Counted from the first letter of the stretch, positions 17,697-47,356 are shown. The stretch is DNA of 64,000 nucleotides from Bilabrum cf. latius (GCA_965178125.1 OZ237745.1:372001-436000); one strand, 5' to 3'. Notes: generated by a model not told the origin, from the sequence alone. Translations and numbers: made by a program.

Positions 17697-18911
17697 TTCG
17701 TTGCTATCTATCGCGCGCCCGATATCGTGGTGTGCAAGGGGGCGAGAATCGTGGGAGGGTGTAGTGGATGGGTCTATGCCAGACAATAGCTCTGCGCAAT
17801 GTTTGCTGCAGCGAATCTACCCGGACCAGTATAATTGATGATGACCTGTACCCATCGCCATTTATTATGCTGCGCTGCAGGACCCGCAAGCCATCAGTGG
17901 CCGAGCAACGCTGGTTGCACAAGTGTGCTAGCGAGCCGGGTATTTTCCGAGGGCCTGCATTGCGAGCCTGCTGCACGGAGAGGGGCAGCACATGCGAGAC
18001 ATGACATGGCAGTTCCTGTAGCAGCGGGTCAGGCGCTGCGCGGTCGTAAGATGGAGAGTTGCGGTGTTGGCAGGCAAGGATGCAAGCATGGTATTTCGAG
18101 CGGCGGCAGAGGGCCGGCCGCTTGAGCTGGCCAAGCGGCTCGGGCTGGGGGCGAAGGCGGGGGGACTCGAAGCGAAAGGGGTACTGCCGAAGCGGATGAT
18201 CTGTGGAGAGAAGGAAGATGGGGGCAGTGTGTATGTGATGAGTGAACGCTGGACCAGCGGCCCGCTGATGGCGGCCGTGCTGGGTGGTCACGGCGAGTGC
18301 GTGAAGTTGCTGGTGAAAGCGTGGAAGAGAAAGCTGCGCCCTTTGACCAGGCACCAATTGCGCGCGGCGATTGACGGCCTCGTTGAGTCATGTGCGGTGA
18401 GGCCCCCACTGTAGGAGAAGGGTGTTAATGCAGTGCCGGGAGAGGAAATGCTCGCCCGGCTGCGGTCGCAGGGCGAGGCCTGTGCTCCTGTGGAAGATCT
18501 GCTTCGTCGATGCGCGCTGGCTCGGCCTGCCGATGCACGCAAGATAAAAAAACGCGCGGGCGGGGGCAAGCGCAGGGCCAAACCTGGCCATGCCTGATCA
18601 AATCGTTGCCGTTCGGGAGTTCTCGTGAGATTCGATCGCTGCCGCCGTAACGCGACTGTTGTGCCATCTTGGTTGTATCCGGCGCCGTGAAAGGTCGGAT
18701 TTGGCCGACCGACCGGTATCGCCGATATCGGTACCATGAGTTCACCTTACCGATTCTCGCGTACCATTCAAGTAATCCTAAAATAATATCAAAATATTGA
18801 AAATTGTATAAGTTAACTATCGATTGCGAGAGTTACTCATTGATGAGCTTGCGAGAATAGTATACTTGGTGGTCATGAAACCATACGCTCGATTTTCAGG
18901 AAGGGCTACTT

Positions 18912-19893
18912 GGGGGGGTCAACGTGGTGGTGGTGGAGTGCCACACCAAGCGTTGAGGACGAGGGCTACGCTACGCTCGCCCCTCCTTTAAAGGCATATT
19001 TAGCAACTCAAGTGTTTCCCCTATAAACCTAAATGATTTCCCAAGGGGTTCCCCAAGAACCCCTATAGAACCCCTCTATGTACCCATTTTCAGATATAAA
19101 ATTTACTCCTACGAAGTAGGGGTAAATTGAAGAATTCTAATATTTAACCCCCTTATAAACTCTAACAGCAAAGACAGAGATGTTTTAGTAAAGTAGGAAA
19201 AAATGAAGAAATTAACCAAGTGTCCAAAATATCTCTGTGTTTGCTGTAGGAACGGAAGGATGAATTCCCAAGAGACCAAGAGACCAACCGAGGATTTCCC
19301 CAAGAGAACAAGGTATTTTATCAAGAGACCGAGGTATGTTCCCAAGCGACAAACCGATAAACCGACCGATGAACCGACCGATGAACCGACCAAGGATTTC
19401 CCAAGGATTTCCCAAGGATTTCCCAAGGATTTCCCAAGGATTTCCCAAGCGACTAAATTGTTCTCCGAAGCAACCAAACCGATTACCCAAGAGATGATAC
19501 ATTATAAGGAAAACGAAAACAAATTATAATTGTATTTTAAGTCCCTTTGGAAAAGTCCCCCAAAAATTGAGAGATTTGACAGGTCAATTTTAAGAGACTT
19601 AGAAAGAATAAATATATTTTCCAATTAAAATTAAATGTTGTAATTCCTATGATGCCACCATAAAAATTAAAAGGAAAACGAAAACAAATTATAATTGTAT
19701 TTTAAGTCCCTTTCGAAAAGTCCCCAAAAAACTTGTCAATTTTACAGGTCAATTATAAGAGACTTAGAAAAAATAAATTAAGTTCCCTATTAAAATTAAA
19801 TGTTGTAATTCCTATGATGCCACCATAAAAATTAAAAGGAAAATAAAAAACAAATTATAATTGTTTTCCAATTAAAAACACAAAAATTGATTG
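18912..19893 (+). repeat. Virophage left terminal inverted repeat
   Basis: Reverse complement of 42325-43485. Contains 11-bp GGATTTCCCAA and 12-bp ACCGACCGATGA tandem arrays and a ~170-bp direct duplication. Confidence 0.95.
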
Positions 19894-19954
19894 CCTAAAG
19901 TGGAAATGTCGTACCTTAAGCATAACTTACGTAGTCTATAGTACAACCACATAA

Positions 19955-20194
19955 ATGGCAAAATCACAAAAGGAACTCGAGAATTACATCTTGGCGACCA
20001 AAGAATGTCTTAAATCAGTCCCGTTTATTACAACACGAGAAGCATACGATATGGCCAAAAAGTACCTTGAATTTACAAAGACTATTATTTGGATTAATTA
20101 TGATGATGACGATGACCTGCTTGCTGACTTTGAGGAAGCTAAAGATTTAAGTCAAATTGTAGTTGAATGGCACGAAAGTACCAAAACCAAATGA
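19955..20194 (+). CDS. Virophage hypothetical protein (79 aa)
   Basis: ATG..TGA ORF preceded by the conserved TCGTACCTTAAG/TCTATAG motif. Confidence 0.7.
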   Translation: MAKSQKELENYILATKECLKSVPFITTREAYDMAKKYLEFTKTIIWINYDDDDDLLADFEEAKDLSQIVVEWHESTKTK

Positions 20195-20259
20195 TTTTTT
20201 CCCAAGAATTATTTTCCCTACTTTACAAAAGTAAGGAGAATGATACAACTATATAGCAA

Positions 20260-21315
20260 ATGAGTAGCGCCTTTGAAAGAATATTACAATCCCTAAACAT
20301 TTATCCCAACAGTCGTATTGTAAATTTAATGAAACGACCAAAACGACCCAAAGGAGTAAATCGACCCCACGTAAATGTACCAGAACCTCACCAAGTGGTA
20401 CAAATGGATTTATTATCATTACCCCACGACAATAATTATAAATACGCATTAACTGCTATTGATTTACATACAAAGTAGGCCGATGCTGAACCGCTCAAAA
20501 CCAAGCGTTAGAACGAAGTATTAAAGGCATCAAAAAAGATTTTCAATCGTGGTAATGTCCAGAAACCGCAGCACCGTTTGGAAATAGATAATGGAAAAGA
20601 ATTTAACGCTTTACAAAGATATTTAGAAGAGACCGATGTATTTGTACGAAGAAATAAAGCAGGTCGCCACCGACAACAAGCATTAGTGGAAAACTTAAAT
20701 AAAACGTTGGGAAAAGCCATATTTACCCTATAGAACGTTAATGAGTTAAATACAGGTAACGAAAGCGTAGAATGGGTGGATATGCTTCCAAACATCATTG
20801 AAAACTATAATGAATATCAACTGGAAAAGTATATAGAAGAACCACCTTTACCCCCAGAACACTTCGACTTTACGTAGTGTAAAGGGGACGCTTGTAATAT
20901 ATTGGAAGAGGGTACAAGAGTTCGTATACCATTAGAAGAACCCAGAAAGGCTACAAATTTACAGCAAAAATTATCCGGAAATTTTCGTGCTTCCGATTTA
21001 CGCTATAATCCAGAAATCAAAACGGTTACTAAAGTGTTATTAAGACCCGAACAACCACCTTTATATGTTGTGGATTAGGACGATTTAGTGGCTTATACAA
21101 AAGAGGAATTACAGATTATCGACTTTGATAATGAGGACAATAACCGAGATGCTCAGACAATCTTTCTCCCAAAAAAGATAAAATCCGAGAACGAAACAGA
21201 GTATCAAATCGAATGGAAAGATTTTCCAGAACCAGAACATTGGACGTGGGAACCAAAGAATAAAATCCAAGAAATTGCTCCTAATTTAATTTTGGAGTGG
21301 GATATAGAAAATTGA
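20260..21315 (+). CDS. Retroviral-type (rve) integrase with C-terminal chromodomain (~351 aa)
   Basis: With TAG read through: HQVVQMDLL, EIDNGKEF, QQALVENLNKT (D-D-E) and YQIEWKDFPEPEHWTWEP. Ends TGA. Confidence 0.9.
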
Positions 21316-21372
21316 GATGCCTCGTATCGTACCTTAAGGATTATTTTCGTATTCTATAGTACAACAACAAAA

Positions 21373-23034
21373 ATGTCATTCACTCTGCCGACTAAAGCGT
21401 ATTCGTCAAAAAGCCTTATGGACCTATGTAATGCCGGAAAACAAGAGGAATGTATTCAATACCTTAAACAATACTTCTACCGCACCCACGAGCAAGGTGG
21501 CGGGGTGTATTTTCTAATAGCATCTGAATTAAATCGGAATAACATAAGTGATGACGAACCCCAGAAACCAGTCTGGTAGTTCCTTACGAATAAAAATATT
21601 ACTGAAAATTACCTGATTGGGGGACACTGTATTTACGCGATTGTGGGCAACAAAAGAGTAAAGACTTGGTCAGCACGAGACTGGTTCTTAAATGAGAATA
21701 CCGACGTATTTACGATTGTAAGAAAATTTAATTCACCTACCGTGGATTACGACAATCAAACAATTAACGTTATGGGTTCACCTATACTTACACGGGAAAA
21801 CTGTGGAAACATAGAGGATTTATCCGAAGACGCAAAAGCAGGCGCGACTATGATTTATGAACATATCCAGAAGGTGTGGACTTCAGAAGACAAAGAATAG
21901 TGTGATTTTGTGATGAAATGGTTGGCTCACGTTATTGTGGGCGGAAAGAAGTTGGGAACAGCACTATATTTGAAATCTCCACAAGGAACTGGTAAATCGA
22001 TGATTATTACCTTCCTTATGAGAAAACTACTCGGATATACCCTCACACTATAGACGCTTACACACAAGATGCTTCAACCCGACGCCTTCAACTCAATTCT
22101 GGACGGGAAACTATTAGTCAATTTTAATGAAATTCCAAAAGCCCCGCCAACTATTTGGGACGCCATGTAGGCAACACTAAGAAATCTTATTACGGAAAAA
22201 CACTTTTCCTGTAATGAGAAGTTTGTCAAATCCGAAAGTCGTCCGAATACATTCAATTTAATTATTGATACGAATGATAGTCCAATCAAAATCACCGAGG
22301 AAATCCGTAGATATTGTGTTTTGGATGTGAATACATCTAAGAAAGGAGACAAAGAATACTTTACAACACTAAAACGTTTTACAGAAAATCCAGAAGTGGC
22401 TAAGGCATTTTATATGTTATTGGTTGAAATCTATGATACATCACCAGACTTTACAGGACAATTCGCACCAAAATCAAAGAATTTTTACAAAGGAATTCTT
22501 GATGGCGCACATCCGGTTTTAAAAATTCTAAAAGAAGAGTGGCTGGACGAAGGCAGAGATTTTAAAATGACAGTCTTGGAATTCCGCAATTATCTAAAGT
22601 AGGAACTGAACGGTAGAGTGAAGAACCTTGGTACACCTATGATTAAAACACTATTGTCAGAGGTGGGTGTTCATTCAACGATGAACAAATAGAGAAAACA
22701 AGAATTTAATGTGAAACACGCAGACTTACTAAAAGGCTTCCAATCTAAGTTTTAGGCACTTCGTCATTCTGCTGAGATGGAAAAAGCAAAATCCGAGGTG
22801 GATGTTCTTCGAGAATAGATTAGAGAACTACAGAAACAAGTCGCATAGCAACAGGAAACGATTGAATAGTTGGAATTAGAAAAGGAGATTACACCGACGG
22901 AAAAAGTCCATAAGAAAATCCAGAAACAGCTGAGTGTTGAGAATAGCATCGCTATTCAAAAATGGATAAAAGAGAACCCACCAAAGAACAAAAAAGGGAA
23001 ACTTTCTAAATTCCTCTGTAAAATTGAGAAGTGA
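21373..23034 (+). CDS. SF3/D5-like helicase (~553 aa)
   Basis: With TAG read through: Walker A LYLKSPQGTGKS, Walker B-like LVNFNE, IIDTND, RRYCVLD. Ends TGA. Confidence 0.85.
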
Positions 23035-23091
23035 GTGAGTTCGTACCTTAAGAATAATTATCGTATTCTATAATATATTAGATACTATAGA

Positions 23092-24933
23092 ATGCCCGAA
23101 ATCGATTTTACGGAACCCCAAAGAACCAAATTGCGTCTTAATGGGAAACCAATATGGAGTATGCGATTTGAGAGCGAGGACCTTATCAACGTAAAAGATG
23201 TCTTGGAGTTTATCCGCGATTACGACGATGGTGGTGAAAATCCGTTTGATGACTTTAAATTTAAGGTGAATATCAATTTTCAAGATACAGGTTGGCGAAC
23301 AAGAAGCACTTGGATTACTACAGATGATTTAGAAAATCAAGATAGTTTATGGGCGGGTTACGAAGACGACGATGACGACGAATATAGAAAATTGAATTCT
23401 TTTGAGCTACTGCTTATTAGAAAGCCAGAACCAGAAGGCGGTGCTGACGAACATAACGATTGTTTATATAACGCTATAAAACAGGCTTTTCCTTTTTCAG
23501 TTGGTCGTAAGGTTAATGTAAAGAACGCAAAAGGCAAATGGAAAACTACTATTAAAAGAATGTCATAGTCTGACCTGAAAGAATTCTTGAAAATTGGGCG
23601 TGATGACCCCGTTGATTACAGAAGAATACCAGAGATAGAAGACGAACTAGAAATACGTATTAACGTTGTGGGCGACTTTGAATACACATCTGGAAAAACT
23701 CATTTTGACCGTCTTCTAACTGTATCATTAACAAATGGGCATTACAAGTATGTTCCCCCCATTAGTTAGAAAGAATTATTTACACCGCCGTCTAAAGAAC
23801 CGTGTACGCTAGTTACCCGCTTGTATCAATCCGAGAATTCTTATTTACTATTTGATGGAGACCGTGAGTATCAATCAGAAGGCATTACATCAGTTTCCAA
23901 GGATAAATTCATCTTTGAAGTCAAGTCCAAGGAAGAACTAAGAACAAAACACGAAGAACGGATGAAAAATGTAAGGGCATTAGCGAAGGAGACGGGTGGA
24001 TATATGGATTTATCACGATTTATGTTTAGAACATCCCTATTTGTAAAGTCGTATTTCAGTAAGTTTTCCAAACTTTACCCTGCCGACCCGATTGACCAAG
24101 TTGAAGCACTATGGATTTCAAGAGCATCAGGTGGTGGATTGAATTGGGCAAACAAGAATACTACATTAAAAAACGCATACCAGTACGATATTAACTCATT
24201 TTATCCAAGTATTATGAAGGGTACATTTACATTTCCGGTTAGAAGGGGTAAGTTCGTACAATTTAAAGTACCATCCAGTGGGTTCTATCCGTACGGCATT
24301 TTTAGGGTACAGATTGAAAATCTCAATTCTAAATTAGTACAAAAAAGAAAAAACAATTATTATACCCAATATGACATTAACCGAGCGATTGAGACGGGCG
24401 CTTAGGTGTCTCTGATTGAAGACGGTGAAGCCAACGCTTTACTTTACGATGAGACAACAAGGGTGAAGGCAAATGGACTGTTCAAAACGATGATTGAGCG
24501 ATTGTACGGTTATAAAAAATAGGGATTGAAGTGTGCGAAGGAGATACTAAATAATATTTGGGGTTCTCTATGTTAGAAAAACACAATCACAAAAACACTC
24601 CGAGATGGTGATTGTATGAATTTTAGACAATTAAAGAACGCGTATCCTAAAGCATCTGGACGACTTGTATCGGGTATACTATATGACGAAGAGTACGATT
24701 ACAAAACAGCCTACGCAAGAATGGGCCCCTTTCTGACTGGACTTGGACGAAGTAAATTGTCCAAAATGATTGAGCCATATCTTGAAAACATTCACTATGT
24801 CAACACGGATGGTTTCATTAGTGAGAAAGAATTACCTCTAAAGTTATCAACGAACCTTGGGGGTATGAAGTTGGAGCAATCAGGTGAATGTCAAATTATT
24901 CACAGTAAGAAGAAAATTTTTAGAAAAGATTGA
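23092..24933 (+). CDS. Protein-primed family B DNA polymerase (~613 aa)
   Basis: Motif A YDINSFYPSIM, motif B KEILNNIWG, motif C YVNTDGF. One frame with TAG only, ending TGA. Confidence 0.9.
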
Positions 24934-25262: not shown

Positions 25263-25298
25263 TTTTGTATTCTATAGTATTATACTATAGAGTTAGAT

Positions 25299-26528
25299 TT
25301 AAGTATCGTAGGCAAATATTTTCCAAGCCTGTTTTAGGGCATTCTTCTTGGATATTCCTTTTCCTCTTAAAATGGACGCCATTTTCATAACTCTTGAACG
25401 TTTTGTTTCACACTGACATTGACCTCCAAATATTTCCAGATACATACCCGATACTGGGTCATTCGTATGCGAATGGATTTCTTTCATAATTGGTCTTCCA
25501 ACTGTTTTAGTTGCTAAATCCCAACCTTCCTTAAAATCTTGTCCAAAATCCCTTTCTGTGTTCTACTTATGTTTTGCCTAATTTTTCAGTAAGGCGTTTC
25601 TGACATTTTCCGGTAAATCATCTAAACCTCTCCCAAACCATTTGGAAAAATAACCAGCCACGTCAGTAGCAGCATTAGCCACTCTCTTAGTAAATCCCGA
25701 TACACTCTTAGCAATACTTTCCACATCCTACATAATAAATTGGTTTAAGGGTGGTGTCAAAAACCCATTTGTGCGTAGAACATCCTAAATGAACTTTTGA
25801 CAATTCAACGAGAAAGCACGATACTAATAAAAATTGTATTCTCCTATTTTTTGTAAAGTGGTTTCATATAATTCCCTTACTGTTTTCTAAGGTTTTCCAT
25901 TAATATTTACTTCCATAGTTTGTGTTTTCTTGTTGGTGGAAAATCTTGGGGACAAATTCACACGCTCATTCTTCTCTAAATATATTTTCCTACCACCTCC
26001 AAGGTTCAACTCTAAGGCTAAATGAAAAAAATCATTATATCCGTGTTTATTTTTTAACTTTTTCATTTTTCCCAAGGTTATCCAGTTGAGTAACCGATTA
26101 ATCGCACCACTAATAGGGGTTCTAATCACTTTCATAGCTATAATTGTTCTATCCCCGTATTGCTGTAGTGTTCTCTGGACTTCGTTTGAATTCCCATACA
26201 CAACCCCACCTTTAAGCTGGCTTCGCGGACCATCTTTTAAATACTAATGAAGTGTGTTGGATTGTGTAGGTTTCTTCTAGGATTTCTTTTTTGGTTTTTC
26301 TTTTGTTCCCACACCATCTTTAAGCTGTTGCGCCAGCTAACTGCGCCGAGAGGGGGTGCTTCGCACACCATCTTCAAACTTAATTGCTTTTTCAAGGGCT
26401 TCTTTAGAATAAGGATGTTCACTTTTCCATGTCCTTGTTGTTTTACTCTTTGGTTCTTTGACACTAATGTACGTCTTAACAAAACCAGAATTCATTTTTC
26501 CGCCACTAAGTGAATAAAAACTATCCAT
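25299..26528 (-). CDS. Virophage protein with a putative permuted papain-fold (PPPDE/LRAT-like) domain (~409 aa)
   Basis: Three track ORFs share one frame through TAGs. Motifs FFHLAL..LEKNE and YRAFSLNCQKFI (His before NC). Ends TAA. Confidence 0.6.
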
Positions 26529-26554: not shown

Positions 26555-27172
26555 TCATAGACGAGAACCAAGACCAAATGTTTTACGGACGAATTCCTCC
26601 AGTTGCTAAAAGGATGAATAGACACAGTACTAACTCTAATGTAATCCAGCGATTAAATTCGTTCTTGAGCGTTCCACAGACAATAAGTCCCCCGATTTTT
26701 TACCCTCACGGATTTCCTCAAAAAGACTGTGAGAAGGCACACACACAAAAATTGAACTTTCCTTAAATAAATCTTTCGCTAATTCCAACGAACCAACCAT
26801 AACAATTAAACGCCTCGATTTCTTCGTGAGCCAATCCGCTTTAATTTTTTCATACACTAATCTTGATTGGGAATAATAAAAGAGGCGGTGGGTGCTTTCA
26901 TCACCATCAATTAACATTTTCTCCATTTTCTATTTTTCCTGTCCTGAGATTTGAGCATTTACGCATTCGTCTAAATCAATAATTAGCGTGTCCTTATCCA
27001 CCGCTTCTAGGGAGCGACACAAAGTAGTTTTCCCAGAGCCTTTTGGAACAACCACGCAGGATTTCTGTTTCTAAGTTCCGTCTTTCGTCCACCAAGAATA
27101 TAGACACCGACTACCAGAATACATTAAAGGAGCCAAAGTCCCAGCAACCATTACAGCAGATGACACTGACAT
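26555..27172 (-). CDS. P-loop NTPase/kinase-like protein (~205 aa)
   Basis: VVVPKGSGKTTLCRSL and LIIDLDE; ends TGA. Confidence 0.65.
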
Positions 27173-27204: not shown

Positions 27205-27888
27205 TTATTGCTACTCTTCTTGTTTCTTCTATAAAAGTTTTACATGCTTTTGAGTTTTTTGATGTCTTCTTAGTTTATCTTCTGTTATAGAACATCCACA
27301 TTCACACTATACTGTTTTCCGTTTTGTTCTATACTCCTACCCATTACTTTTGGCAATCATCCGCTTCTAATGAATTTGGGTTTTTCTATGTCTTGCGATT
27401 TCATGACGTCTTAATTTTGTTCCACATTCACAAACACATATATCCTTTTTTATCTAAGACAACACTTTTTCTGAATTGGATTTGTACCTTTCACGAGCAC
27501 GTTGTCTTATATCATCTATATTTTCTTTGTAATACTCTCGTTTTTTCTACATAATTGCCTAGTAGTTATCTATTCTATACTAAGCACCACTTCGACCAGC
27601 AACCATTTTATTCACACATTCGGTTTTCTGTATCCACTACCCTTCTATTTTATTGAGTTCTTCTTTAGACGAGCACGAACATGTTTCGATTAGGTCTATT
27701 CTATGGTCTTCCATTTGTAAAACCTTAAATGATGTTGTGTACCCATACTTCCCCTTCTTATACTATCTAAATTTTATCCTATGCTACGACATTCTCATAC
27801 TCAAAGATTGAGTAGTAGAACCAATATACGTTAATCCTGTAGAAGGAGACCAAATTTTATATATCTTCCCCTTTGAATAATCAGGCAT
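27205..27888 (-). CDS. GIY-YIG endonuclease with C-terminal CECG zinc motifs (~227 aa)
   Basis: MPDYSKGKIYKI..TYIGSTTQSLSMR and CECG..RHQKTQKH. Missed by the ORF track because of TAGs; ends TAA. Confidence 0.85.
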
Positions 27889-27949: not shown

Positions 27950-29749
27950 TCAAGCTTGGAGCATAGCGAGAAGTTGATTGCGAGAAAGAGATTTACCACC
28001 TGTTAAGCCCGAGCCTAACTTGGCACCTGTTAAGCCCTTGCCTTTCTTGGTAGTTTTTCGGGGTTTCCTTTGGCGTCCCATACCAGCCATTTCACCCACC
28101 ATTTTAGCGGTGTCAAATACCTACTTACCATCCTTTAATACTTTTTTGAGATTGCCTTTCTTTACCCAATCAGCGGTTTTGTGTGCGAACTTTTTTAAGG
28201 CATGTCTAATCTTTTTCCCAAGACCGCGACCATGTAATCCTGATAATTGACTTTCATAGACCACGGGTAGTTTAGAGGCGGACAAAACGTCTGCTCGTGA
28301 GATGACACCCTGCTAATACTCGAACTTAGACCCATCAATCAAATTTAATACTCCTTCGTATAATCCAATCACCACACACTATACATTATCGTAGTCCACA
28401 ACATCATTATTCTTCACTCGTAGGGTGATAGACAATTGATTAGAACCGTTGCTACCATTCGTCTAATCTACATCTAAGCTTAAGTCCTTGGCGGGGTCAA
28501 TACATAGCAGGCCACCAGATAATACCCTTTGTTGATATCCAGGCTATTCAGGCTATATTCCATTATCGAAGCGTCGCATAGCCCATTCCGCGTATTGCTA
28601 TTCAAGTCCGTTGCTTCTGGATAAGTCCCATAACTGCTGTGGCGATGCGTCGGCGAGTAATCCAGATTTGTTATTCATCTCGATACTTATTCCCTCAATT
28701 CCAAGGAATGTGTTTCCCTAATCTACTGAGACGCTGGTAGGTGAACGACGGGCGAATACAAATAAACGACTTGGTACACTATTGCTAAGTTTTATGTTGT
28801 TGTTGGTAAGAGTTGCTGTAGTACCTGCGGCAATTGTTGGACTATGACTTTGGGTATACGAAGTCATCTCAAAAATATCATACGAGACCTATTTAGGAAG
28901 CACAAAACCTGTCTTTGGGGTGATTTGTTCAAGATATAGGGCTGGTTCTTGGACATCTACCGACTGAACAGTAGCAGTTAAGCCCTATTGTGGAATACGA
29001 GACCAAACGGTTTTACTCAGTTGAGACCAATTAATATTTAAGGAGAGTGTTTGAATTCCGTATATAGCCGTTTGTTCCTATTTACTTTCGTAGTGGAAAG
29101 GTGGGCATAGTACTGCCTCAGTGCATTCAAAAACAAGAACACGATTTTGAGTTTGACCTGCGGGTACATCAGTATTATCCATTTGATACAAATTGTAAAA
29201 TCCACTTCCTCGGGCTGGTTGGTCCTAAAGCACGTCCTCATACGAAGCAAGAGCGTTATTCGTAGACTAACTCATCATCGCGTATGAAGGCACATTATCG
29301 CGTCTATACACACTATCAAGGCAATTCACACGGTGGACATCATCATCTAGTAAATGGGACAGCGCGTCCATTAATTCTCCGTTGTTCTGGGTATAGCGAA
29401 GGTTATTAATGCCAACTGTCTATGTTGCGATGGAGCGATTAAGTGGATAGGAGCGTGGAGCATCGTAATCTGGTCTAAAGGGTGCTAGACCACCTGCGGT
29501 TTGATTATTCACGGAAAAGGTGATAGAAAATCGGCATGAGACATAGGCGCGGCGGCACAAACCTACACCTGAAGGCATACTAATATTCCAGTTGACCCCG
29601 CTGTTGTAGTTTCCGGCAGACCCGGAGGGGTTATATTTACGGAAAGTCCGGTTCTCATAACCTTCTTGAACTTCATAAGGCTTCGGTTGTACATCTAGTG
29701 TTGCGGGTGATACTTTGACTGGCTGAAGGGCAAAGGTATTCAATGACAT
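27950..29749 (-). CDS. Virophage major capsid protein (599 aa)
   Basis: 1800-nt frame with ~14 TAGs and no internal TAA/TGA. Segments DAPRSYPL, NNKSGLLADASPQQLWDLSRSNG, GGLLCIDPAKDL and a basic Gly-rich tail match the recalled Sputnik-type MCP pattern. Confidence 0.9.
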
Positions 29750-38000: not shown

Positions 38001-40819
38001 CGCCACGCAAGTACTTCGACAAGGTGCCTCGCTAGACTGCAACACTGCGGACCCGGCGGGAGGTTCTGTTTGGCGGCCGCACACCGAGGAAGGCCCCGTC
38101 CCTTGCCGAGTTTAAAGCCCTCCCACGAGTCGAGCGTGTACTGGCAGCACTGAACTATGGTTGCCCCCTAGCCATCGTGGACGAGGTGCCCAAAGAGCAC
38201 GATCTAGACTACAAGGACCGTAAGCTGTCTCCGGAAGAAAAGTGGGAGATCGCCTGCGAGATCGGGCGCTCCATGCGGGCTGGCGAGCGTGACTTCGTGT
38301 CACCCAAAGATTTCGACACAGCCCGGGCCCGGCCGCTGGTGATCCCCAAGAAGGACTCGACAAAGCTACGGTTCCTTCAGGACTCCTCACTCAAGGTGAA
38401 CGGCCAGCGTACCGGTCTGAACAAGGCCATCGACTACAGTGCAGCCACGCCTGTGCAGCAGACGAGCAGCATGGACGTGCTGCGCTCGGCAGCCGCAGCA
38501 GTTCGATCCTGCCCCAAGCGTGCCAGCGGATACGTCGTCGACATTTCCTCGTACTTTCGGGTCCTGCCGGTGGCAGTGGAGGATCTCCAATACAACCTGA
38601 TCAAGCTGCCCGACGGGCGCATCGTGCAAGATTTCAGGCTCTCTATGGGCAGCTCATCATCTCCCGCCTTCGCAACTACGATCAGTTCGGCTTTGGCCCA
38701 AGCCCTCGAGGAGCAGTCCATTGGCAGGGCCATGCGACCCGGACGGAGACACAAGCAGAAGCAACGACGCCGGAAGCAGCAGCACGCCAACGCCCAATCC
38801 AGCACGACGGACCAGGCGCCCCAGGCGAACTCGTCAGCAACGTCCACCCCGCCTGCCGCTAGCACGACAACGGGACATGTCAAGACGGCCCAAGACTAGT
38901 CCCGCCATTGGTAGGTCGAAAATGAGGTGTTTGTAGATGACTTTGCCTGCCTCGGCGGAGATCACGAAGTCGATGCATGGGCAATTCGAGCCATGGGGCA
39001 GCTGGACTCCACAAACTTCCCCGTCAGCATCTCGAAAGCATTGAAGCAAGGGGCCCCAGCCCCGGTGTTCGAGTACTTGGGCCTCACCTACGACTTGATC
39101 AAACACGAGGTGCGGTGCCCTAAGGACAAGGCCAACGACGTCCTGCGCAGACTGCACGAGGCACTCACGACGAAGGGGATGCTGCTGTCTAGCTTTGAGA
39201 CCTTGGTCGGCAAGTTGTCCTTCCTGTCGGGCGCACTTTATGGTATGCGCGGTGCTCTACGTCCCCTGTATGACGCCAAGGGCTGGGCCCTTCACAAGTA
39301 GGCCAGCCGGTCACGACCAGGTGAGGTGTGGGTCCCCACCTCCTTTGTGTCCAAGGGTGGCTTCACAGTTGGGGAAATCCTCGAGGGATTCCAGGTGGCT
39401 ATCCAGCGCAAAGGCGGGCGCAGCTTTCCGATGCGGGGCACCATTGACTGTCCCATCCTTCGCACTGATGCGTCGGTGACAGGCTACGGCGCCGAGCTGC
39501 TTCTCCACGACAAGGACGGCAACATCACTTCGCACACCGGCATCCAGGGCACTTGGCCGCATCGCCTAGAGGCGAAGGATGTAGCGGCGGCAGAACTTGC
39601 AACATGTTTGTTGGCACTGGCGCATTGGCGACAGCACCTGCGTGGACGTGTGGTGCGTTTGTGGTGTGATAATGATGCTTCCGTGTAGCTGATACGCTAC
39701 GGCAGACCCAAGAGCCACATCATGGCAGCCTTACTTCGCCCTATCTTCGTACTGCAGACAACGCAAGATGTGCAGATTCACGTGAAACACATTCCTGGCG
39801 AGGACAACGTCGTTGCGGACGCTTTGAGCCGCGGCTCACAGGAGGCATACACGCACCTGGACGCGGTGTATCAGGTCGACTGTCCCACGCCGATCTGGAA
39901 CACCTTGTACAAGCACGACCATTTCACGCTGGTGGCCACTCTGGACTCAGTGGGTTGCGCACGGCGTGGGGGCACTTCGACAACTTCCTCACGTGGTACG
40001 ACATCGACCGCAGTTTCATGGACGGGCATCTTCCAGCAGCTCGCAGACTCTTCGCGTTCAGGCTCAATGCAGCGCTCTCGAGATTCGCAGTCTTCTTAGG
40101 GGAATGTTCGCCTCTCAGTGGCGGCACCATCGCTACATACACCAGAAATGCCTAGCGAGTCGTCATCGAGTCCACAGGTGCGTGCGGCGTCCCACGGTCA
40201 AGCTAGCTCGACAGCATCCTCCGGTACTACCACAAAGCATCGCCATCGGCGCACCCGTTGCGTCGATCTTCAGCCCCACTCCGCGCAATCCGACGGTGCT
40301 TCTCGACAGCCGGTTGCAGCACAACAGAGTAGGCTGCTCGGACAGCTGTCTGTCTCTGCTTCTGTGGGGGCCTCCGGCTGGGAGAGCTCGTCGGTGCGTC
40401 CAGACGACAAGCCGGCCTCCAATGGCAGCAAGTGCAGTTCATCACGCGAGACGGACGCATCCATGGTGTTGCCATCCGCCTGGGCCTCCACAAAGCCGAC
40501 GGCCCAGCCAAGTTCTCCATCCAAGCCGCAGAGCCCATCGCAGTCCATTGCAGAGCCGGACGATGGGCAGTCACAGGCAGCAGGTTCTGCGGCGTGCGAG
40601 CCTTCGTGGCGTGGGCAGCAGCGAGCCACGCCCCAACTGCAGGCGCAGACGAAGACTACGCCCGGTAGCTGGCGCTCAGCTGCCCCACGTCAGGGCCAGT
40701 CTTCGTGGCGAACACGAAGCCGATCGTCAAGGCGCAGGTAGTACGGGCGCTCCGCAGCTTCTGCTCACGAGAAGTTGCAGGAGCGGTGCACGGACATTCC
40801 ATCCGCATCGCGGCAGTGA
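35060..40819 (+). CDS. Ngaro Gag-like + reverse transcriptase + RNase H open frame (up to ~1919 aa)
   Basis: Single frame with TAG only. RT motifs VIPKKDSTKLRFLQD, VDISSYF, LSMGSSSSP and FVDDF. RNase H motifs TDAS, AAEL, CDN and HIPGEDNVVADALSR. Confidence 0.85.
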
Positions 40820-41013
40820 TGTGTTTGGACCGTGCTGGGGTCGCCTTCGAGGTCATTAGGCGATTTGGCAGATGGAAGTCGGCATCTGCATGCGAGGTGT
40901 ACTTGCGGGGCGTCAGGGAAGGTTTGCCTCCTCTGGAGCTCGGCGGCAGGAGCCTCGATTTGAACAGGCCAGTGTGGGTGCTGGCCAGCGCGCTGCGGCT
41001 GAACTTGGAGTGA
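39955..41013 (+). CDS. Ngaro tyrosine recombinase (overlapping frame; start uncertain)
   Basis: GGLRLGEL (Arg), HSIR (HxxR) and GRWKS..CEVYLR (Trp, Tyr); ends TGA. Confidence 0.88.
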
Positions 41014-41794
41014 GCCACACAGCCGCAGCGTACAAGACATGGCGGTAAGATTTGGCGGAGTAGTGCACGTGCTCTTCCCAGCCCCGGTCAGTCCGGTCAA
41101 GGGTCGCGCACAGGCACAGCTTTGTCAGGTCTTGCCATGTCTGATTGTTAACGAGACTAGGTTGCGCGTACACTCTGGCATCATGATCCTAACGCCGGAT
41201 GGGGTTCGGTGTTGATGCCAGAGTGGGAGCGCGTGAACGTCTCGTTGGGTTCCGATGGCGGTTGCGACCGGGAAGGTGCGACCAAGCCAACGGATTGCTT
41301 GCGATGACGCGCATACCCTCTCTGTGTTCAGGAGAGGGGCGGAGATTGGGTAATTTTTGCCCACCCTCCCAACCCCCTCCTCCTCGGCGGAGTAGTGCAC
41401 GTGCTCTTCCCAGCCCCGGTCAGTCCGGTCAAGGGTCGCGCACAGGCACAGCTTTGTCAGGTCTTGCCATGTCTGATTGTTAACGAGACTAGGTTGCGCG
41501 TACACTCTGGCATCATATCAGAAACAGCAATTAAGGAGATTTAGAGTTTATTTTATAATTTAACATTATTTGAAAAGGAACCTGAGAAGTATAAAGAACA
41601 AATTAAATCACTGACAAATATGGTGGAAAACATTATATTTGAAGAGCAAGTAGAGTATCTTGTAAAATAGGCGAAAACACGAATTCTTAACAAAGACGAA
41701 ATCAAAGAGATAATCGGTAATTATCTCTAAATAATAAAGATGATATTAAGTCCCCATAAAATGCTGATGTTTCTTGCTGTTAAAATGGTGTGAT

Positions 41795-42079
41795 TTATGA
41801 ACTCCAAAGGTAAAGATGTGAGAAGAACTTTGGGGTTCTTGGTTTTACTTCGATACCGTGTCGTTTGAAGTATCTAAATTGGCGGTCCGTATCTAAATGA
41901 TTTAAATGGCTGTAATACCCTATTCTATCGTAAAATTGCTAATACCGCCTATCACCAAACGATGTAATATATTCATCATTTTCGTCAAAAACATCGTATT
42001 TTGAAGTTTTGCGTCTTGAGGGTGCTTTAAATAGAAAATTTTCAACAACCTTTTCAAAATCGTAGGTATGTGGCTTCAT
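41795..42079 (-). CDS. Small virophage/giant-virus-type protein (94 aa)
   Basis: KYDV..ITSFGDRRYQQF..HLNHLD..RH..FFSHLYLW; ends TAA. Confidence 0.65.
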
Positions 42080-42324: not shown

Positions 42325-43485
42325 CAATCAATTTTTGTGTTTTTAATTGGAAAACAATTATAATTTGTTTTTTATTTTCCTTTTAATTTTTATGGTGGCA
42401 TCATAGGAATTACAACATTTAATTTTAATAGGGAACTTAATTTATTTTTTCTAAGTCTCTTATAATTGACCTGTAAAATTGACAAGTTTTTTGGGGACTT
42501 TTCGAAAGGGACTTAAAATACAATTATAATTTGTTTTCGTTTTCCTTTTAATTTTTATGGTGGCATCATAGGAATTACAACATTTAATTTTAATTGGAAA
42601 ATATATTTATTCTTTCTAAGGCATGAGCCGGAACGGCCACTGCCGCGCTGCCCCGCCCCCTTCCCTAAGGAAGGAGACGAGGGAATGCCTCGCAAGCTGC
42701 TGGTCGCACTGGCGGTTGCAACCTCGCGTTGGTAGACCGGAGCCTGTGTTCGAGTCTCGAACGCATCGCCACATCAACCCCGAACCCCATTCGGCGTTAG
42801 CATTATTAAAATTGACCTGTCAAATCTCTCAATTTTTGGGGGACTTTTCCAAAGGGACTTAAAATACAATTATAATTTGTTTTCGTTTTCCTTATAATGT
42901 ATCATCTCTTGGGTAATCGGTTTGGTTGCTTCGGAGAACAATTTAGTCGCTTGGGAAATCCTTGGGAAATCCTTGGGAAATCCTTGGGAAATCCTTGGGA
43001 AATCCTTGGTCGGTTCATCGGTCGGTTCATCGGTCGGTTTATCGGTTTGTCGCTTGGGAACATACCTCGGTCTCTTGATAAAATACCTTGTTCTCTTGGG
43101 GAAATCCTCGGTTGGTCTCTTGGTCTCTTGGGAATTCATCCTTCCGTTCCTACAGCAAACACAGAGATATTTTGGACACTTGGTTAATTTCTTCATTTTT
43201 TCCTACTTTACTAAAACATCTCTGTCTTTGCTGTTAGAGTTTATAAGGGGGTTAAATATTAGAATTCTTCAATTTACCCCTACTTCGTAGGAGTAAATTT
43301 TATATCTGAAAATGGGTACATAGAGGGGTTCTATAGGGGTTCTTGGGGAACCCCTTGGGAAATCATTTAGGTTTATAGGGGAAACACTTGAGTTGCTAAA
43401 TATGCCTTTAAAGGAGGGGCGAGCGTAGCGTAGCCCTCGTCCTCAACGCTTGGTGTGGCACTCCACCACCACCACGTTGACCCCC
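42325..43485 (-). repeat. Virophage right terminal inverted repeat (with 185-bp insertion)
   Basis: Reverse complement of 18912-19893 apart from 42621-42805. Confidence 0.95.
42621..42805 (-). repeat. Solo repeat related to the Ngaro A repeat, inserted in the right TIR
   Basis: Reverse strand reads CTAACGCCGAATGGGGTTCGGGGTTGATG versus A-repeat CTAACGCCGGATGGGGTTCGGTGTTGATG, and shares GGTTGC/GTGCGACCA/GCTTGCGA/AGGGGCGG blocks. Confidence 0.75.
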
Positions 43486-43677
43486 CTACTTTGATACTGC
43501 AGAAGTTTGTCCAAGCAGGCATGCTTGAGAAATAAACAAGCTTTTTTGAATAAATTGGTAGTTATATTATATATAAGTCTTAGCGCAAAAAAGTTACCGA
43601 ACGGTTTACAAGATATTGAATCGAATGTGGACCTGCCATGAATGACGTGCTTCGTGACCCGATTCTTGCGCATCCAT

Positions 43678-46090
43678 TTACTTGGCATTAACATCAACAA
43701 TATCCACATCACAGCCAAATCCTGTTTCCAGATGATACATAGATTCTTTACAATCCCCACAAATGAACTTGCAGCAGCGTGAACACACTTTATAGGAAGA
43801 AACTGACTAATGATGCTGCCGCTTGCTGCATCTGGAGTCCTTGCACTTGGCGCTGCACCCCACTCGACGGTTCTTTGATCGTCCGCTACTGAGAAATTTA
43901 ATCAGTCCTGCTTGCAACTACTCCTTTCCAATCAAATGGAGCGAGCCCAGCAGCGTAGCTACCGTGTGCTGCTTTCTACATCCAAGGTTCCCGGGGGTCG
44001 CCTCCGCACGCATCCCAGCTGAGGTTGCAGCACCGCGAGTTCCTGCACGTGCATGTCGGTAAGGACGCATCAATTCGTCATACAACAGCTGCACAAACAT
44101 AACATGAGCTTGTCGATGCAGCACCATGTGCTAAACCTGTTCCTGAACGGATTCGTTGCTAGCTCCAGCAGCTTGCCGACGACTGGGTCCGTGGCGTAGC
44201 AGTCGACGTGCCTCCAAGTTGACCCAGATGATGTACGTATTGACGATAACTTGCTCCATTAAACCTTCCCACACTCTTAAGTATGCCCTATTCTCTCCCT
44301 GGAATGCATTTGTTAGCGAAAGTTGCGTCCGGAACTTGTCAGCTAGATGCACACCCCCCATGTACTTGTTGTAGAGGACGGACACGAGGGGCGCGTTCAC
44401 CACACTCAGTTCGCCACCATCTTTCCGTAGCTTCTTTACCAACCGAACAAAGTACTTCGTAGGAATGTTAGAAGCCATAAGAAATGGTGCGCGGTCACAG
44501 TATCCAAAAACTTGCATCCCAGAAGCTGAATCAACTGGCGAGTCAAAGGCTACTGTCTGGCCAGGGCTCAACAGGCCCCGACTGCCAAGGTCCTCTTCGG
44601 CCAGCAGCGATCCCGCAGGAAGCTCACTCGCATCAAAAACATCATCAGCTATTACATGACATGAAGAGACTTTGCTGGACCCAGGAGGAGCGCGCTTCAC
44701 AGCCTGCCCGCGTTCGCCTGGGGTTCGTCTGTTCAGCTTGCCAATCGCGTGGTACAGCTCACCGCTCACTTTGCCTTGGCGAAGCGTGCCAACAACCCGA
44801 AGGCCTTTGCTGGTGGCCCAATCACACAGTGGAGCCGATTTAAAGTAGTTATCCACCGCTAGAAGGCCCCCATTCAAGTTTTTGTCCATTGCCTTTGACG
44901 CAACAGCTGCTGTTTGCAGGTCCATCCGGGTCAGCTACCCGGCAGCGGCACCGCTACCGGTTGCTACCTTATACGAGTACTCAGCCTTCCCCCTGTACTA
45001 TCGTGTATCATCGGCAACAGATGTTGCTAGATCCAAATGGTACCCATACCCGTCTTTTCGCGCAGCTGCCCATAGCTTAAAGCCATGCGATGTGGGCTTG
45101 TTCGGCATGATGACACATGCCCGATTTCGGCCGTACGCCATCACCATCATCTCATCAACGGCGATGCTCTTTGGGCTCGAAGTAGCCGCACGAAAGTACT
45201 CTGAAACTGTATCTAGCATGCCTGATAGATATTCTATGAGTACCCGCTCGCGAGGACTGCCCACACTCCCTAGCCTCATTGTGGCGCGCTCCTCCGCCAG
45301 CAGGGGTGCCGGAGCCTCCTGCAACCTCCCGGCGAAAGACAAGTTTCGATGGAACCGATTCCAGTCTTGCACTACGATATCGTCTTTCATGCGCACCAGG
45401 AACTACTTTGATTGCAGTTATTCTAAAGGTATCCGGGGTCGGATGAGAGACAGAGTCAATGCCACGGCCAGGAACATCATCGCAACTGGCATGTCCATTG
45501 GTTGGTCGCTGCCGGCTGGCCGGCTGCCTGGCCAGCTACCTCTGCCGCTGCAGTGCCTCGCCACGGAAATGCAATATCGAGAGGCACCAGCGAGCACAGA
45601 ATGCGTATTGAAGATATTGGTTGTTCATGATGAGCCGTCATCCAGCCTTTGACATACTCAGTAGCAGCCACATAAGTAGCCGCTGTGCGAGCGATCGGGA
45701 TCCCATCACCGCCAATCACAACCCGGTCATTCACGAAGTACCTATATTCAGGCTCGTCAACCAACGATGCAATTTTGTCCATAGGAAACATACTTTCATA
45801 TTGCTCTATTCTGCGCCGCTTTGCTTGGTGAGCCTACTGCCTCCTACGATGCTGCACTTGAGGCCGGCTCAAAGTTGCAGACCGACTGGATACCTGCTCG
45901 TCCTCGTCTGAATCGCCGACATAGTCCATATCATCATCGCTGGCCTATGCTTCGCCCAACAAATCACGTAAATCATCATCTTTTGTCGATTTATTTGCAT
46001 TGTCCTCTTGCCGTTTACGCTTGAACCCAGCGCGTCGGCTCGAACTGGCCGCATGGGACGGGCTGCTTCCTGACTACTTGCTAGCAACCG
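43678..46090 (-). pseudogene. piggyBac transposase, degenerate (5' end approximate)
   Basis: IAVDEMM..MPNKP..GFKLW, VDNYF..VGTLR, YNKYMGGVHLAD and a C-terminal Cys-rich domain. In-frame TAA at 45418-45420 and an apparent frameshift near 45620. Confidence 0.85.
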
Positions 46091-47356
46091 AAACGCTAGA
46101 TATAGGTTTACAAGACTCCAATGAGAATTTTGGGATTGACTGAGATGCTTCTGCGAAGGCTAAGCACAAATAAGCGATGAAGGCTGATATCAGTGGCCTT
46201 GCAGCAACACCGTGCATGGCCAATTTTGCACAGGACGCAAGCCCGATTGTGGCCCTATTATACCTCTGTAGAATTATTTAAGCTCGTCCACATCACCATG
46301 AAATGATTATTCAACCAACACCTCGTCAAGCATACCACGGATGCATGGATACTGTCAATGAGTGCCACATTCGTGGCTTCCGGTGCCTCTGCGGCAGATT
46401 GTACGGTACCCCGAAACTAGCCGGCTAGAGCCCATGCAATTCCACCAACCATAACAATACCGTACTCACTTTGATCGATGATCCTGAGTTTGGCGGATTT
46501 CTGCTCGTGACGCCGAGACGAGGCACTCCCACCAGGGGCACTTGCACCCCGAGACCCAACTTCGGACGCGCCGCTGGAGCGACTTTATCGCCTCCCACTC
46601 GTTGTTCTCGCAAACGTAGACGTAATCCTCCACATGATATTGTATTCAATACCCGTTTACCTCAACAGTAGTGCCAGTGTGTTAAAAGTCTATTGCGCTA
46701 AGGTATAAATGCCCTGCAAATTTTGGAACCGTTTGAACCGACGTGTGTTGGAATGGCAGCCAAATTTCGCTGGATTGCTAATGAATGAGCCTAGTGACCT
46801 GATAACATGTTGTCAAATATGTTTTTAACTACTAAATACCAACAGAAACCAAAGAAAAGCTTTTTTGGCGGCACACGGTGCGTGCATCTGGCACCCCTTG
46901 CCAGCGAGTAAAATCTTGGGCTGGGGGTGGTCGCCAAAAATGGTGGTCGCAAGCACGACTCGTTTTCAGTCTAATGCTGCGAATTGCATGGCTCCGTTGG
47001 GACTGCATTACATTTAAATGTTACATAAGATATTTTTGCAATGTAAATTCACCCAAGAAATTGGTCCAGTTCTCAGCAATGGGAGCCTAAAGGCACGATG
47101 GTCGCGATTTTGGGACTCGGAATGCCAATAATGGCGGACCTTTCACGGCGCCGGGTATGGCCAGGGCTGTGGGCATCCGGATTGTTTGATTGAATGCAAG
47201 CGCTGCACACGAAGCGACTGAATAGAGAGCGAAGGGTCCAGCCAACAGGCACCGCAGCTACTTCTAGTACAAATAATACGGACTAGAGAAACTTGATGAA
47301 GTCGTATCATCATATTCCATCGTCATCCGATGCCATCAGTGAGTCATTCATTGCCT

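Follow-up and report, generated by a model that had tools for sequence, protein, structure and literature searches.

A virophage inside a piggyBac-like transposon, and a Ngaro retrotransposon inside the virophage, on a chromosome that appears to read TAG as glutamine

How does a virus come to lie between the ends of a DNA transposon while itself carrying a retrotransposon, and did these elements arrive one after another or together? This question is raised by a 64,000-nucleotide stretch of the Bilabrum cf. latius genome (GCA_965178125.1 OZ237745.1:372001-436000), referred to below as the window, with positions counted from its first letter. The composite in question spans 28,476 bp (18679-47154) and consists of a piggyBac-like transposon that contains a virophage, which in turn contains a Ngaro-type retrotransposon and the relic of a second one. 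We consider it very probable that the locus represents three successive, recent insertions stacked at one intergenic spot, in the order piggyBac-like element, virophage, Ngaro, on a chromosome that reads TAG as glutamine. A first-pass annotation made from the sequence alone had proposed the nesting of these layers in the host chromosome, and the repeats, duplications and layer identities described here bore it out almost to the base.

Boundaries and identity of the nested layers

The order of nesting and the boundaries of the layers are directly visible in the window. The layers were identified independently of their boundaries, by Pfam, profile, fold and repeat evidence, and steps in G+C content (GC) coincide with the boundaries. 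The host flanks (35,524 bp of the window, 57.8% GC) vary between 52 and 70% along the GC profile. The profile runs at 34-43% from ~19.0 to 34.9 kb, at ~60% from 35 to 41 kb, low again to ~43.5 kb, and at ~50% to 47.1 kb. By layer, GC is 50.2% in the piggyBac-like element (3,896 bp), 36.8% in the virophage without its Ngaro and relic (17,728 bp), 61.2% in the Ngaro (6,661 bp) and 63.2% in the relic (185 bp). With both insertions included, the virophage occupies ~24.57 kb (18912-43486). The composite appears to be intergenic in the host, because the 3' end of the nearest recognisable host gene, a MACPF gene on the minus strand (47745-48971), lies ~590 bp from the piggyBac end.

The outer element comprises the following features, in which TSD stands for target-site duplication, TIR for terminal inverted repeat and ORF for open reading frame.

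18675-18678: GTAT, left copy of the 4-bp TSD of the piggyBac-like element
18679-18696, plus strand: 18-bp TIR CCGGCGCCGTGAAAGGTC, at the end downstream of the transposase gene
18679-18911, minus strand: terminal segment of the piggyBac-like element, 233 bp, severed by the virophage
43492-47154, minus strand: main body of the piggyBac-like element
45390-43681 (stop codon 43678-43680), minus strand: piggyBac-family transposase ORF, 570 amino acids, five in-frame TAG codons, PF13843
45477-46217, minus strand: ORF of 246 amino acids upstream of the transposase, in another frame, with an acidic stretch and without a match to piggyBac N-terminal regions
47137-47154, minus strand: 18-bp TIR, reverse complement of CCGGCGCCGTGAAAGGTC, at the end upstream of the transposase gene
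47155-47158: GTAT, right copy of the 4-bp TSD

The 18-bp TIRs pair with 0 mismatches and are bracketed by GTAT, as had been annotated. When the window was searched for CCGGCGCCGTGAAAGGTC at up to three mismatches, only 2 matches were returned (chance expectation, 0.08), and 0 of 100 shuffles reached that number. Both ends begin with CCGG; no subterminal inverted 9-mers were found beyond the TIRs. The duplication is 4 bp long, the length expected of piggyBac, and its sequence is GTAT. In published work, piggyBac insertion is defined by TTAA specificity (PMC7351741).

The transposase ORF matches PF13843 (DDE_Tnp_1_7) with an expect value (E) of 8.5e-10 at profile positions 110-247 of 349. An exhaustive homologue search returned 256 proteins at E <= 0.001. 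The best matches are two short fragments of 128 and 69 amino acids at 93-94% identity; also among the matches listed are four further fragments at 50-62% identity and full-length relatives at ~26-43% identity over the matched stretches. Because the ends of the fragments at 93-94% identity coincide with a TAG codon of the window's transposase ORF, these fragments look like standard-code ORF calls of another copy. We then aligned the window ORF with 26 full-length relatives, hand-picked from the best 150 of the 256 matches, to which it is 20-25% identical. PF13843 is matched by 27/27 of the aligned sequences. Among the catalytic Asp columns, there is no variation at D79 or D299 and very little at D180; the C-terminal cysteine-rich region retains five conserved cysteines. 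A profile built from the 26 homologues matched the transposase ORF at E 1.7e-45 (positions 221-567 of 576).

An AlphaFold model of the transposase was of modest quality, with a predicted local distance difference test (pLDDT) score of 66 and a predicted template modeling (pTM) score of 0.64. Its best folds were piggyBac (6x67_C, E 5.1e-9) and piggyBat (9c0f_C, E 7.5e-9), followed by Tn5 transposase, with low template modeling scores of 0.32-0.39. A word-based protein search with the transposase gave no match, and a PDB sequence search gave chance matches only. We also considered splicing the 246-amino-acid ORF in frame to the transposase through a GT-AG intron (45539-45406 or 45539-45403); this was dropped, as the 26-homologue profile still stopped at position 221. 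The N-termini of the homologues, searched across the window with tblastn, had no match elsewhere.

With piggyBac of T. ni (6x67) and piggyBat (9c0f), the window element shares the PF13843 core, the three Asp columns, the C-terminal Cys-rich region, short perfect TIRs and a 4-bp TSD. It differs from them in having GTAT rather than TTAA, in its CCGG ends, in its 20-25% identity to full-length relatives and in an N-terminal third that is not recognised. We therefore assign the outer element to the piggyBac superfamily by its predicted catalytic core and its ends, its duplication in this one copy being other than the TTAA to which piggyBac is specific.

Inside this element lies the virophage, whose ends and genes are as follows.

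18906-18911: CTACTT, left copy of the virophage TSD
18912-19893, plus strand: left virophage TIR, with tandem arrays of 11-, 12- and 21-bp units and of a 165-bp unit (2.2 copies)
20167-21315, plus strand: rve-family integrase with C-terminal chromodomain, 382 amino acids, six in-frame TAG codons; PF00665 E 1.7e-9, PF00385 E 6.7e-6
21373-23034, plus strand: DUF5906/VapE-like (D5-type) helicase, 553 amino acids; PF19263 E 6.9e-15
23092-24933, plus strand: family B DNA polymerase (PolB) of the protein-primed (organellar/viral) type, 613 amino acids; PF03175 E 1.9e-5
25299-26528, minus strand: ORF of 409 amino acids, function unassigned, no Pfam family
26555-27172, minus strand: ORF of 205 amino acids with a P-loop-like N-terminus; AAA_24 E 0.0024, below cut-off
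27205-27888, minus strand: GIY-YIG endonuclease-domain protein, 227 amino acids; PF01541 E 6.3e-8
27950-29749, minus strand: double jelly-roll major capsid protein (MCP), 599 amino acids, 14 in-frame TAG codons; Sputnik-type, PF22031 E 1.8e-31, PF21915 E 5.1e-25
29828-30943, minus strand: minor capsid (penton) protein V18/19, 371 amino acids; PF21507 E 1.5e-10
31000-31491, minus strand: ORF of 163 amino acids, function unassigned, no credible Pfam match
31557-32738, minus strand: ORF of 393 amino acids, function unassigned, no credible Pfam match
33073-33975, minus strand: P-loop ATPase, putative packaging ATPase, 300 amino acids; its AAA-type matches are generic, the best (E 8.2e-6) falling narrowly short of cut-off
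34165-34719, plus strand: ORF of 184 amino acids, putative maturation cysteine protease; no family match, relaxed Pfam run included
41795-42079, minus strand: small ORF of 94 amino acids; DUF5754 E 2.5e-4, below cut-off
42325-43486, minus strand: right virophage TIR, 1,162 bp, lengthened by the relic
43486-43491: CTACTT, right copy of the virophage TSD

The virophage is separated by 185 bp from the stop codon of the transposase and by 233 bp from the end of the transposon, in agreement with the first-pass annotation, which had placed it between the stop codon and the terminus with both piggyBac TIRs kept. Because it landed in the 3' non-coding tail, both TIRs and the transposase ORF survive. 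Its inverted arms, 18913-19593 with 42806-43486 (681 nt) and 19598-19893 with 42325-42620 (296 nt), are both 100% complementary, and the inverted ends measure 981 bp. Tandem repeats (units of 21, 12 and 11 bp, and the 165-bp unit present 2.2 times) make up much of these ends, at 19287-19864 and 42354-43112. The virophage terminates in G7 at its left end and in C6 at its right end, where the last C is common to CTACTT. Thus the annotated ends of about 1 kb and the CTACTT on both sides stand, and the length of the duplication is ambiguous between 5 bp (TACTT) and 6 bp (CTACTT). Under either reading, the empty site reconstructs as one continuous piggyBac-like sequence. Elements with rve integrases, such as mavirus and Mavericks, make TSDs of 5-6 bp (PMC8547959). 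The size of the element lies within the 15-30 kb range of virophage genomes (PMC8547959), and it has the low GC, TIRs and short TSD expected of such a genome.

The identification of this layer as a virophage, from its predicted proteins, is firm. Searched against the PDB, the capsid protein matched Sputnik V20 (3j26_A) at E 9.1e-33 and the mavirus MCP (6g45_A) at 1.2e-9, and by sequence it is much nearer the former. The penton protein matched the Sputnik minor virion protein (3j26_N) at E 4.9e-14. All 13 ORFs (94-613 amino acids) are open when TAG is read as sense. Because the ends are identical (681/681 and 296/296) and every one of these ORFs is open, the virophage copy appears to be young, and it looks functional.

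Several assignments are more tentative. The PF03175 match of PolB (24.2 bits) falls just under the 25.8-bit cut-off, and the N-terminal 340 amino acids (23092-24111) had no family match even in a relaxed Pfam run, so that an exonuclease domain is not confirmed there. An OTU-like motif in the same N-terminus is not claimed, since the relaxed run gave nothing credible. Virophages are expected to encode an FtsK/HerA-type packaging ATPase and an adenain-like cysteine protease. The 300-amino-acid P-loop ATPase may be the packaging ATPase, given its place in the morphogenesis block. The 184-amino-acid ORF is a putative maturation protease by its position, the His, Asp and Gln-Cys spacing having been judged by eye only. 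The capsid protein has an extra stretch of ~11 residues (residues ~397-408, 28541-28576) that includes two TAG codons and is absent from two database relatives, which are 94% and 58% identical to it.

The virophage genes also have an upstream motif in common. TATA[ACG]TA stands 8-23 nt upstream of the ATG in 11/13 genes, compared with 3.1% of random 40-nt virophage windows, a descriptive enrichment. Virophages borrow shared promoters from their giant virus, and the motif looks like a promoter of this kind. It is the sole pointer here to the reliance of virophages on a giant virus for expression and replication, and the window contains no giant virus sequence.

The Ngaro and the relic of a second Ngaro lie within the virophage.

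34856-41516, plus strand: Ngaro-type tyrosine-recombinase retrotransposon, 6,661 bp, in a virophage spacer of 29% GC
34856-35031, plus strand: repeat A1, 176 bp, 100% identical to A2
35060-40009, plus strand: long ORF with a reverse transcriptase (RT)-like region followed by RNase H; the frame is open to 40819
40018-41013, plus strand: tyrosine recombinase ORF, 331 amino acids, in another frame open from 39676; PF00589 E 1.2e-4 to 2.9e-4
41054-41184, plus strand: repeat B1, 131 bp, 100% identical to B2
41184-41359, plus strand: repeat A2, 176 bp
41386-41516, plus strand: repeat B2, 131 bp
42621-42805, minus strand: 185-bp solo A-like repeat from a diverged second Ngaro family, confined to the right virophage end; the corresponding site on the left has 4 bp

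The split direct repeats that had been annotated for the Ngaro are exact, A1 being identical to A2 and B1 to B2. Their order is A1, internal region, B1, A2, a 26-bp spacer and B2, which is the A1-[ORFs]-B1A2B2 layout given for Ngaro elements by Hackl et al. (PMC8547959). The flanks of the insertion (34850-34855 and 41517-41522) differ, so there is no TSD, and Pfam found neither an rve nor a methyltransferase domain in the element. The lack of a TSD together with the lack of a methyltransferase domain is the criterion that sets Ngaro elements, tyrosine-recombinase retrotransposons of the DIRS order, apart from DIRS1-like and PAT-like elements.

The ~1000 N-terminal amino acids of the long ORF had no family match and are Gag-like by position only. 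RNase H was detected with Pfam (RVT_3, E 5.3e-7; RT_RNaseH, E 0.0016), and a three-sequence profile matched the Ty3 RT/RNase H at 3.4e-5. The blocks D..YF, SMGS.SSP and FVDD, which we read by eye as RT motifs, are conserved across the window sequence and two database homologues, which are 57% and 36% identical to it and lie on contigs of ~5.8-6.0 kb. An R / HxxR / Y pattern was likewise seen by eye in the recombinase. We classify the element as Ngaro-type mainly on its repeat architecture and RNase H, with its predicted enzyme domains partly confirmed.

The Ngaro sits between the protease-like gene and the 94-amino-acid ORF, flanked by spacers of 29.4% and 28.1% GC. In the reconstructed empty site, only open pieces of 55 and 78 amino acids would span the insertion point, and no recognisable virophage gene is broken.

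The second Ngaro relic, also proposed in the first-pass annotation, was recovered as 185 bp in the right virophage end, within its 165-bp tandem array. Its reverse complement is identical to repeat A at 119/159 aligned positions. The alignment score of 32 compares with 4.6 ± 2.5 (maximum, 15) in 300 shuffles. Over its first 32-35 bases, the relic is 89-91% identical to the start of repeat A, and adding repeat B to the comparison brought no gain. By this resemblance we classify the relic as a solo A-like repeat that derives from another Ngaro family. A resemblance of the relic to a tRNA was unsupported, since neither ARAGORN nor Rfam detected a tRNA or RNA family anywhere in the window. Since it is present in one virophage end only, the relic most likely arrived after the virophage had integrated. 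No further Ngaro protein or repeat matches were found in the 35.5 kb of host flanks or in the piggyBac-like element (best E, 0.34 and 0.71). By our own arithmetic from the lengths, chance would place both of two Ngaro events in the 17.7 kb of virophage, given ~57 kb of sequence other than Ngaro, in roughly one case in 10, which is not significant; the clustering is suggestive.

TAG as a sense codon in the elements and their host

Standard-code ORF calling left the virophage, Ngaro and piggyBac genes fragmented. With TAA and TGA as the sole stops, the ORFs became tidy and non-overlapping, including a 1,928-codon Ngaro frame and a 579-codon transposase frame; other stop sets gave overlapping or fragmented ORFs and were rejected. 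Of the 13 virophage genes, 7 use TGA as their stop and 6 use TAA; TAG terminates none of them. In-frame TAG codons are also found in the host flank genes, namely those encoding a BTB/Kelch protein, MACPF, GWT1, BRX1 and a short-chain dehydrogenase, of which GWT1 (PF06423, E 1.6e-50), BRX1 (Brix domain, E 2.7e-43) and MACPF (E 2.8e-11) were identified with Pfam. TAG is thus sense in virophage, Ngaro, piggyBac and host genes alike, and because the host flank genes carry it in frame, the recoding belongs to the host nucleus.

We then asked which residue TAG aligns with. In an alignment of the MCP with eight database relatives, the 94%-identical relative has Q at 11/11 aligned TAG columns and the 58%-identical relative has Q at 7/12 and E at 3/12; counting against the reading of TAG as glutamine, the Q in these closest relatives may itself be TAG translated by a recoding-aware gene caller, and so not be independent. 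In host BRX1, a TAG lies within a block of near identity; the human protein has Q at this position and the yeast protein has E. Against Sputnik V20, 13 TAG columns of the capsid protein align, of which one stands opposite L and 12 stand opposite residues that are small or polar (G, G, Q, S, R, N, K, S, P, E, D and S). One transposase TAG stands in a MAFFT column opposite L in most relatives; a hidden Markov model alignment puts it in a hydrophilic, poorly aligned stretch beside a long insertion, which is disordered in the structure model. No tRNA genes were found in the window with ARAGORN or Rfam. The best reading of these alignments is that TAG encodes glutamine. The pattern would correspond to a code of the NCBI table 15 type, in which TAG alone is reassigned to Gln and TAA and TGA terminate. 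With TAG apparently sense in every layer and in the host genes, and aligned with Q or E, the expectation in the first-pass annotation that the virophage-Ngaro association recurs in a differently coded host is supported.

TAG is used most heavily in the virophage, where it accounts for 103/263 Gln codons (39%), compared with 18/148 in the five host genes, 10/80 in the Ngaro RT ORF and 5/23 in the transposase. Because 39% of its Gln codons are TAG, virophage proteins would be truncated in any standard-code cell. The same usage implies that a helper giant virus would have to cope with the same code.

Order of events and competing explanations

The nesting fixes the order in which the elements arrived: the piggyBac-like element came first, the virophage next, and then at least the Ngaro that left the relic. 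We propose that a 3.9-kb transposon of the piggyBac superfamily would have inserted by cut-and-paste and produced the 4-bp GTAT duplication. A virophage of ~17.7 kb would then have integrated into the non-coding tail of the transposon with its own rve integrase, giving a duplication of 5-6 bp; the chromodomain of the integrase may have steered it to silenced, transposon-bearing chromatin. The 6.7-kb Ngaro would have entered the AT-rich spacer between two virophage genes by reverse transcription and tyrosine-recombinase recombination, a route for which no TSD is expected. An element of the second Ngaro family would have left the solo A-like repeat in one virophage end. Given the intact ORFs, the identical repeats and the promoter-like motif common to its genes, the virophage could still be open to reactivation by a giant virus that shares the decoding of TAG as glutamine, as its sequence suggests.

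Several observations weigh against this account or limit how far it extends. The whole of it is drawn from a single locus in one assembly. The TSD of the outer element is GTAT rather than the canonical TTAA, in the one copy in hand, and positions 1-220 of the transposase profile, corresponding to the N-terminal third, are unmatched, which counts against claiming that the element is autonomous. Recombination between A1 and A2 should leave A+B, yet the relic resembles A alone. In Pfam the Ngaro RT scores weakly (RVT_1, E 0.085), which probably reflects a low-complexity insert of ~60 residues that splits the domain, and the structure model of the RT-RNase H region, made from a three-sequence alignment, reached a pLDDT of only 33 and was not used. 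The PF00589 match of the recombinase (22.3 bits) lies below the 27.1-bit cut-off, and its PDB matches were chance matches only. Finally, the 13 upstream regions in which TATA[ACG]TA was counted were also those that had yielded the motif.

Two alternatives concern the outer layer. The composite could be a functioning fusion whose piggyBac ends and transposase mobilise all 28.5 kb, virophage included, as in Teratorn, a piggyBac-herpesvirus fusion reported to be still transposing (PMC5601938, PMC10175614). The survival of both 18-bp ends and of the transposase catalytic core, with the virophage in the 3' non-coding tail, speaks for such a fusion, but the virophage retains a TSD of its own, complete inverted ends and an integrase, which is what a simple insertion would show. 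In addition, the N-terminal third of the transposase was not found, and the composite is known from one locus, with transposase fragments at 93-94% identity present in public data. We regard a working fusion as improbable. An equally improbable explanation is that the outer layer is not a transposon insertion at all but a piggyBac-derived host gene or an old fossil, with the TIR pair and GTAT coincidental, which would reduce the locus to a virophage in the host chromosome with a Ngaro inside it. The GTAT in place of the TTAA of piggyBac, the restriction of the Pfam match to positions 110-247 of 349, and the empty word-based and PDB sequence searches are consistent with this explanation. It would leave a perfect 18-bp pair and an identical 4-mer bracketing the transposase ORF to coincidence, when 0/100 shuffles reached as many matches, and it sits poorly with an open 570-amino-acid frame that carries five in-frame TAG codons and all three Asp columns. 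The public fragments at 93-94% and 50-62% identity fit a multi-copy family, and the 50.2% GC of the layer sets it off from the 57.8% of the flanks.

The timing of the Ngaro insertion and the integrity of the assembly must also be considered. The Ngaro could already have been in the virophage at integration, carried in virions, rather than inserted later in the chromosome. Every recognisable virophage gene is spared, the loaded genome of ~24.6 kb is within the virophage range of 15-30 kb (PMC8547959), and full-length type 1 and 2a Ngaros of Cafeteria are mostly found in virophages (PMC8547959). Divergence does not fix the order here, as neither the Ngaro repeats nor the virophage ends show a single difference between their copies. 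Set against this, the 94%-identical capsid relative is on a contig of 19,492 bp, shorter than 24.6 kb, and the relic is present in one end only, although by our reasoning replication should copy the ends, so that at least one Ngaro event would postdate integration. Carriage in virions is a serious contender, albeit an unlikely one. We see very little room for an assembly chimera that joins unrelated repeats at one or more junctions. Repeat-rich, heterozygous virophage loci did trouble the Cafeteria assembly (PMC8547959), and perfect identity of long repeats is also possible from collapsed or polished assemblies. Yet the interrupted sequence resumes exactly across the insertions, piggyBac around virophage and virophage around Ngaro, matching duplications bracket insertions, and GC steps coincide with boundaries. 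We therefore retain three successive insertions as the explanation of the locus.

Host flanks and relation to known nested systems

The host flanks contain further repeats and ORFs. An inverted repeat of 48 bp, 98% complementary (12521-12568 and 15770-15817), brackets ~3.2 kb that include the most GC-rich DNA of the window (66-70% at 13-15 kb) and ORFs without a family match. No obvious TSD surrounds the pair, and the unit may represent a further DNA transposon. Two copies of a 136-bp sequence, 80% identical, lie at 220-355 and 47357-47482, the latter ~200 bp beyond the piggyBac end on the right; they could represent either a dispersed repeat of small size or a common regulatory region. Two ORFs at 787-3258 and 3386-5674 (824 and 763 codons, with eight and seven in-frame TAG codons, respectively) had no credible Pfam match even at E 1 and could be lineage-specific genes or an unrecognised mobile element. 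A 1,834-codon host ORF with three BTB-domain stretches and a weak Kelch match includes a 93-bp direct repeat at 88% identity (5932-6024 and 10970-11062), which may reflect an internal domain duplication.

The closest parallel to the composite is found in Cafeteria burkhardae, in whose endogenous virophages the first-pass annotation had cited Ngaro insertions, a statement that agrees with the published account. There, ~1 in 4 endogenous virophages carry a Ngaro of ~6 kb, and of 20 analysable insertion sites, 9 are intergenic, 7 are in genes and 4 are in inverted ends (PMC8547959). Solo AB repeats occur, and three-level nesting is described for an endogenous mavirus-like element (EMALE) with two Ngaro1 insertions that is itself inside a Ngaro4 (PMC8547959). 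In common with these EMALE-Ngaro systems, the window has a low-GC virophage in a high-GC host, inverted ends of ~1 kb and an rve integrase, as well as a GC-rich Ngaro of ~6-7 kb with the A1-[ORFs]-B1A2B2 layout, Ngaro insertions in an intergenic spacer and a terminal repeat, sites that are favoured in Cafeteria, and a solo repeat (PMC8547959). The window virophage also has the integrase-plus-polymerase replication module in common with the Cafeteria elements. In contrast to Cafeteria, the window host appears to read TAG as glutamine, with 39% of virophage Gln codons being TAG. The window capsid protein is nearer Sputnik V20, whereas all Cafeteria elements are described as mavirus-like (PMC8547959). 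The outer shell is a piggyBac-type DNA transposon rather than a Ngaro, and the window Ngaro has one long frame in place of separate ORF1 and ORF2, with a solo repeat that is A-like rather than A+B.

A second parallel is Halocafeteria seosinensis, a relative of Cafeteria, in which virophages and polinton-like viruses nest in each other and in Mutator-like (MULE) and long interspersed nuclear (LINE) elements (10.64898/2026.07.28.741278). Virophages inside host transposons, themselves invaded by transposons, are thus common to both, and the authors of that study raise the shuttling of transposons by a replicating virus (10.64898/2026.07.28.741278). The Halocafeteria system differs in that its transposons are MULE DNA transposons and LINEs, Ngaro is stated to be absent and host GC is 47%; in the text of that study, the terms "genetic code" and "stop codon" occur 0 times each (10.64898/2026.07.28.741278). 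Retrotransposons inside polinton-like viruses are also reported from cryptophytes and ochrophytes (PMC12220804).

Teratorn of medaka likewise has a whole DNA virus genome between piggyBac-superfamily ends (PMC5601938, PMC10175614). It differs in being a 180-kb, established, multi-copy and transposing element of a vertebrate (PMC5601938, PMC10175614), whereas the window holds a single locus in which the virus keeps its own TSD, ends and integrase and there is no sign that the composite ever moved. In the full-text literature we found no report of a virophage using a reassigned stop codon, nor, among the literature matches listed, of a virophage inside a piggyBac element, most subscription journals lying outside this coverage. 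Thus the kind of nesting is known from Cafeteria and Halocafeteria; what is new here is the recoded host, the TAG-rich virophage with a Sputnik-like capsid and the non-TTAA piggyBac shell.

The association between virophages and Ngaros has so far rested on one host genus, Cafeteria. A second host, with traces of two Ngaro families in one 17.7-kb virophage, suggests that the association recurs and is not an oddity of Cafeteria. A broader, rather doubtful possibility is that Ngaros are specialised virophage riders across unrelated or distant protists, one of them with a reassigned stop codon, targeting virophage DNA, sparing its genes and spreading from cell to cell in virions, with the TAG code acting as a host-range fence for a three-tier community and piggyBac offering a second, virus-independent route. 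If this were true, the heavy use of TAG would tie the virophage, along with a giant-virus helper not yet seen, to hosts that read TAG as Gln. The TAG usage of the virophage in itself makes the locus a natural test of how a change in the genetic code shapes the host range of viruses. The suggestions of the first-pass annotation that the virophage could be moved as piggyBac cargo and that the Ngaro could travel in virions are reasonable conjectures. An intact virus between working-looking piggyBac ends also represents a starting state from which a Teratorn-like fusion could arise.

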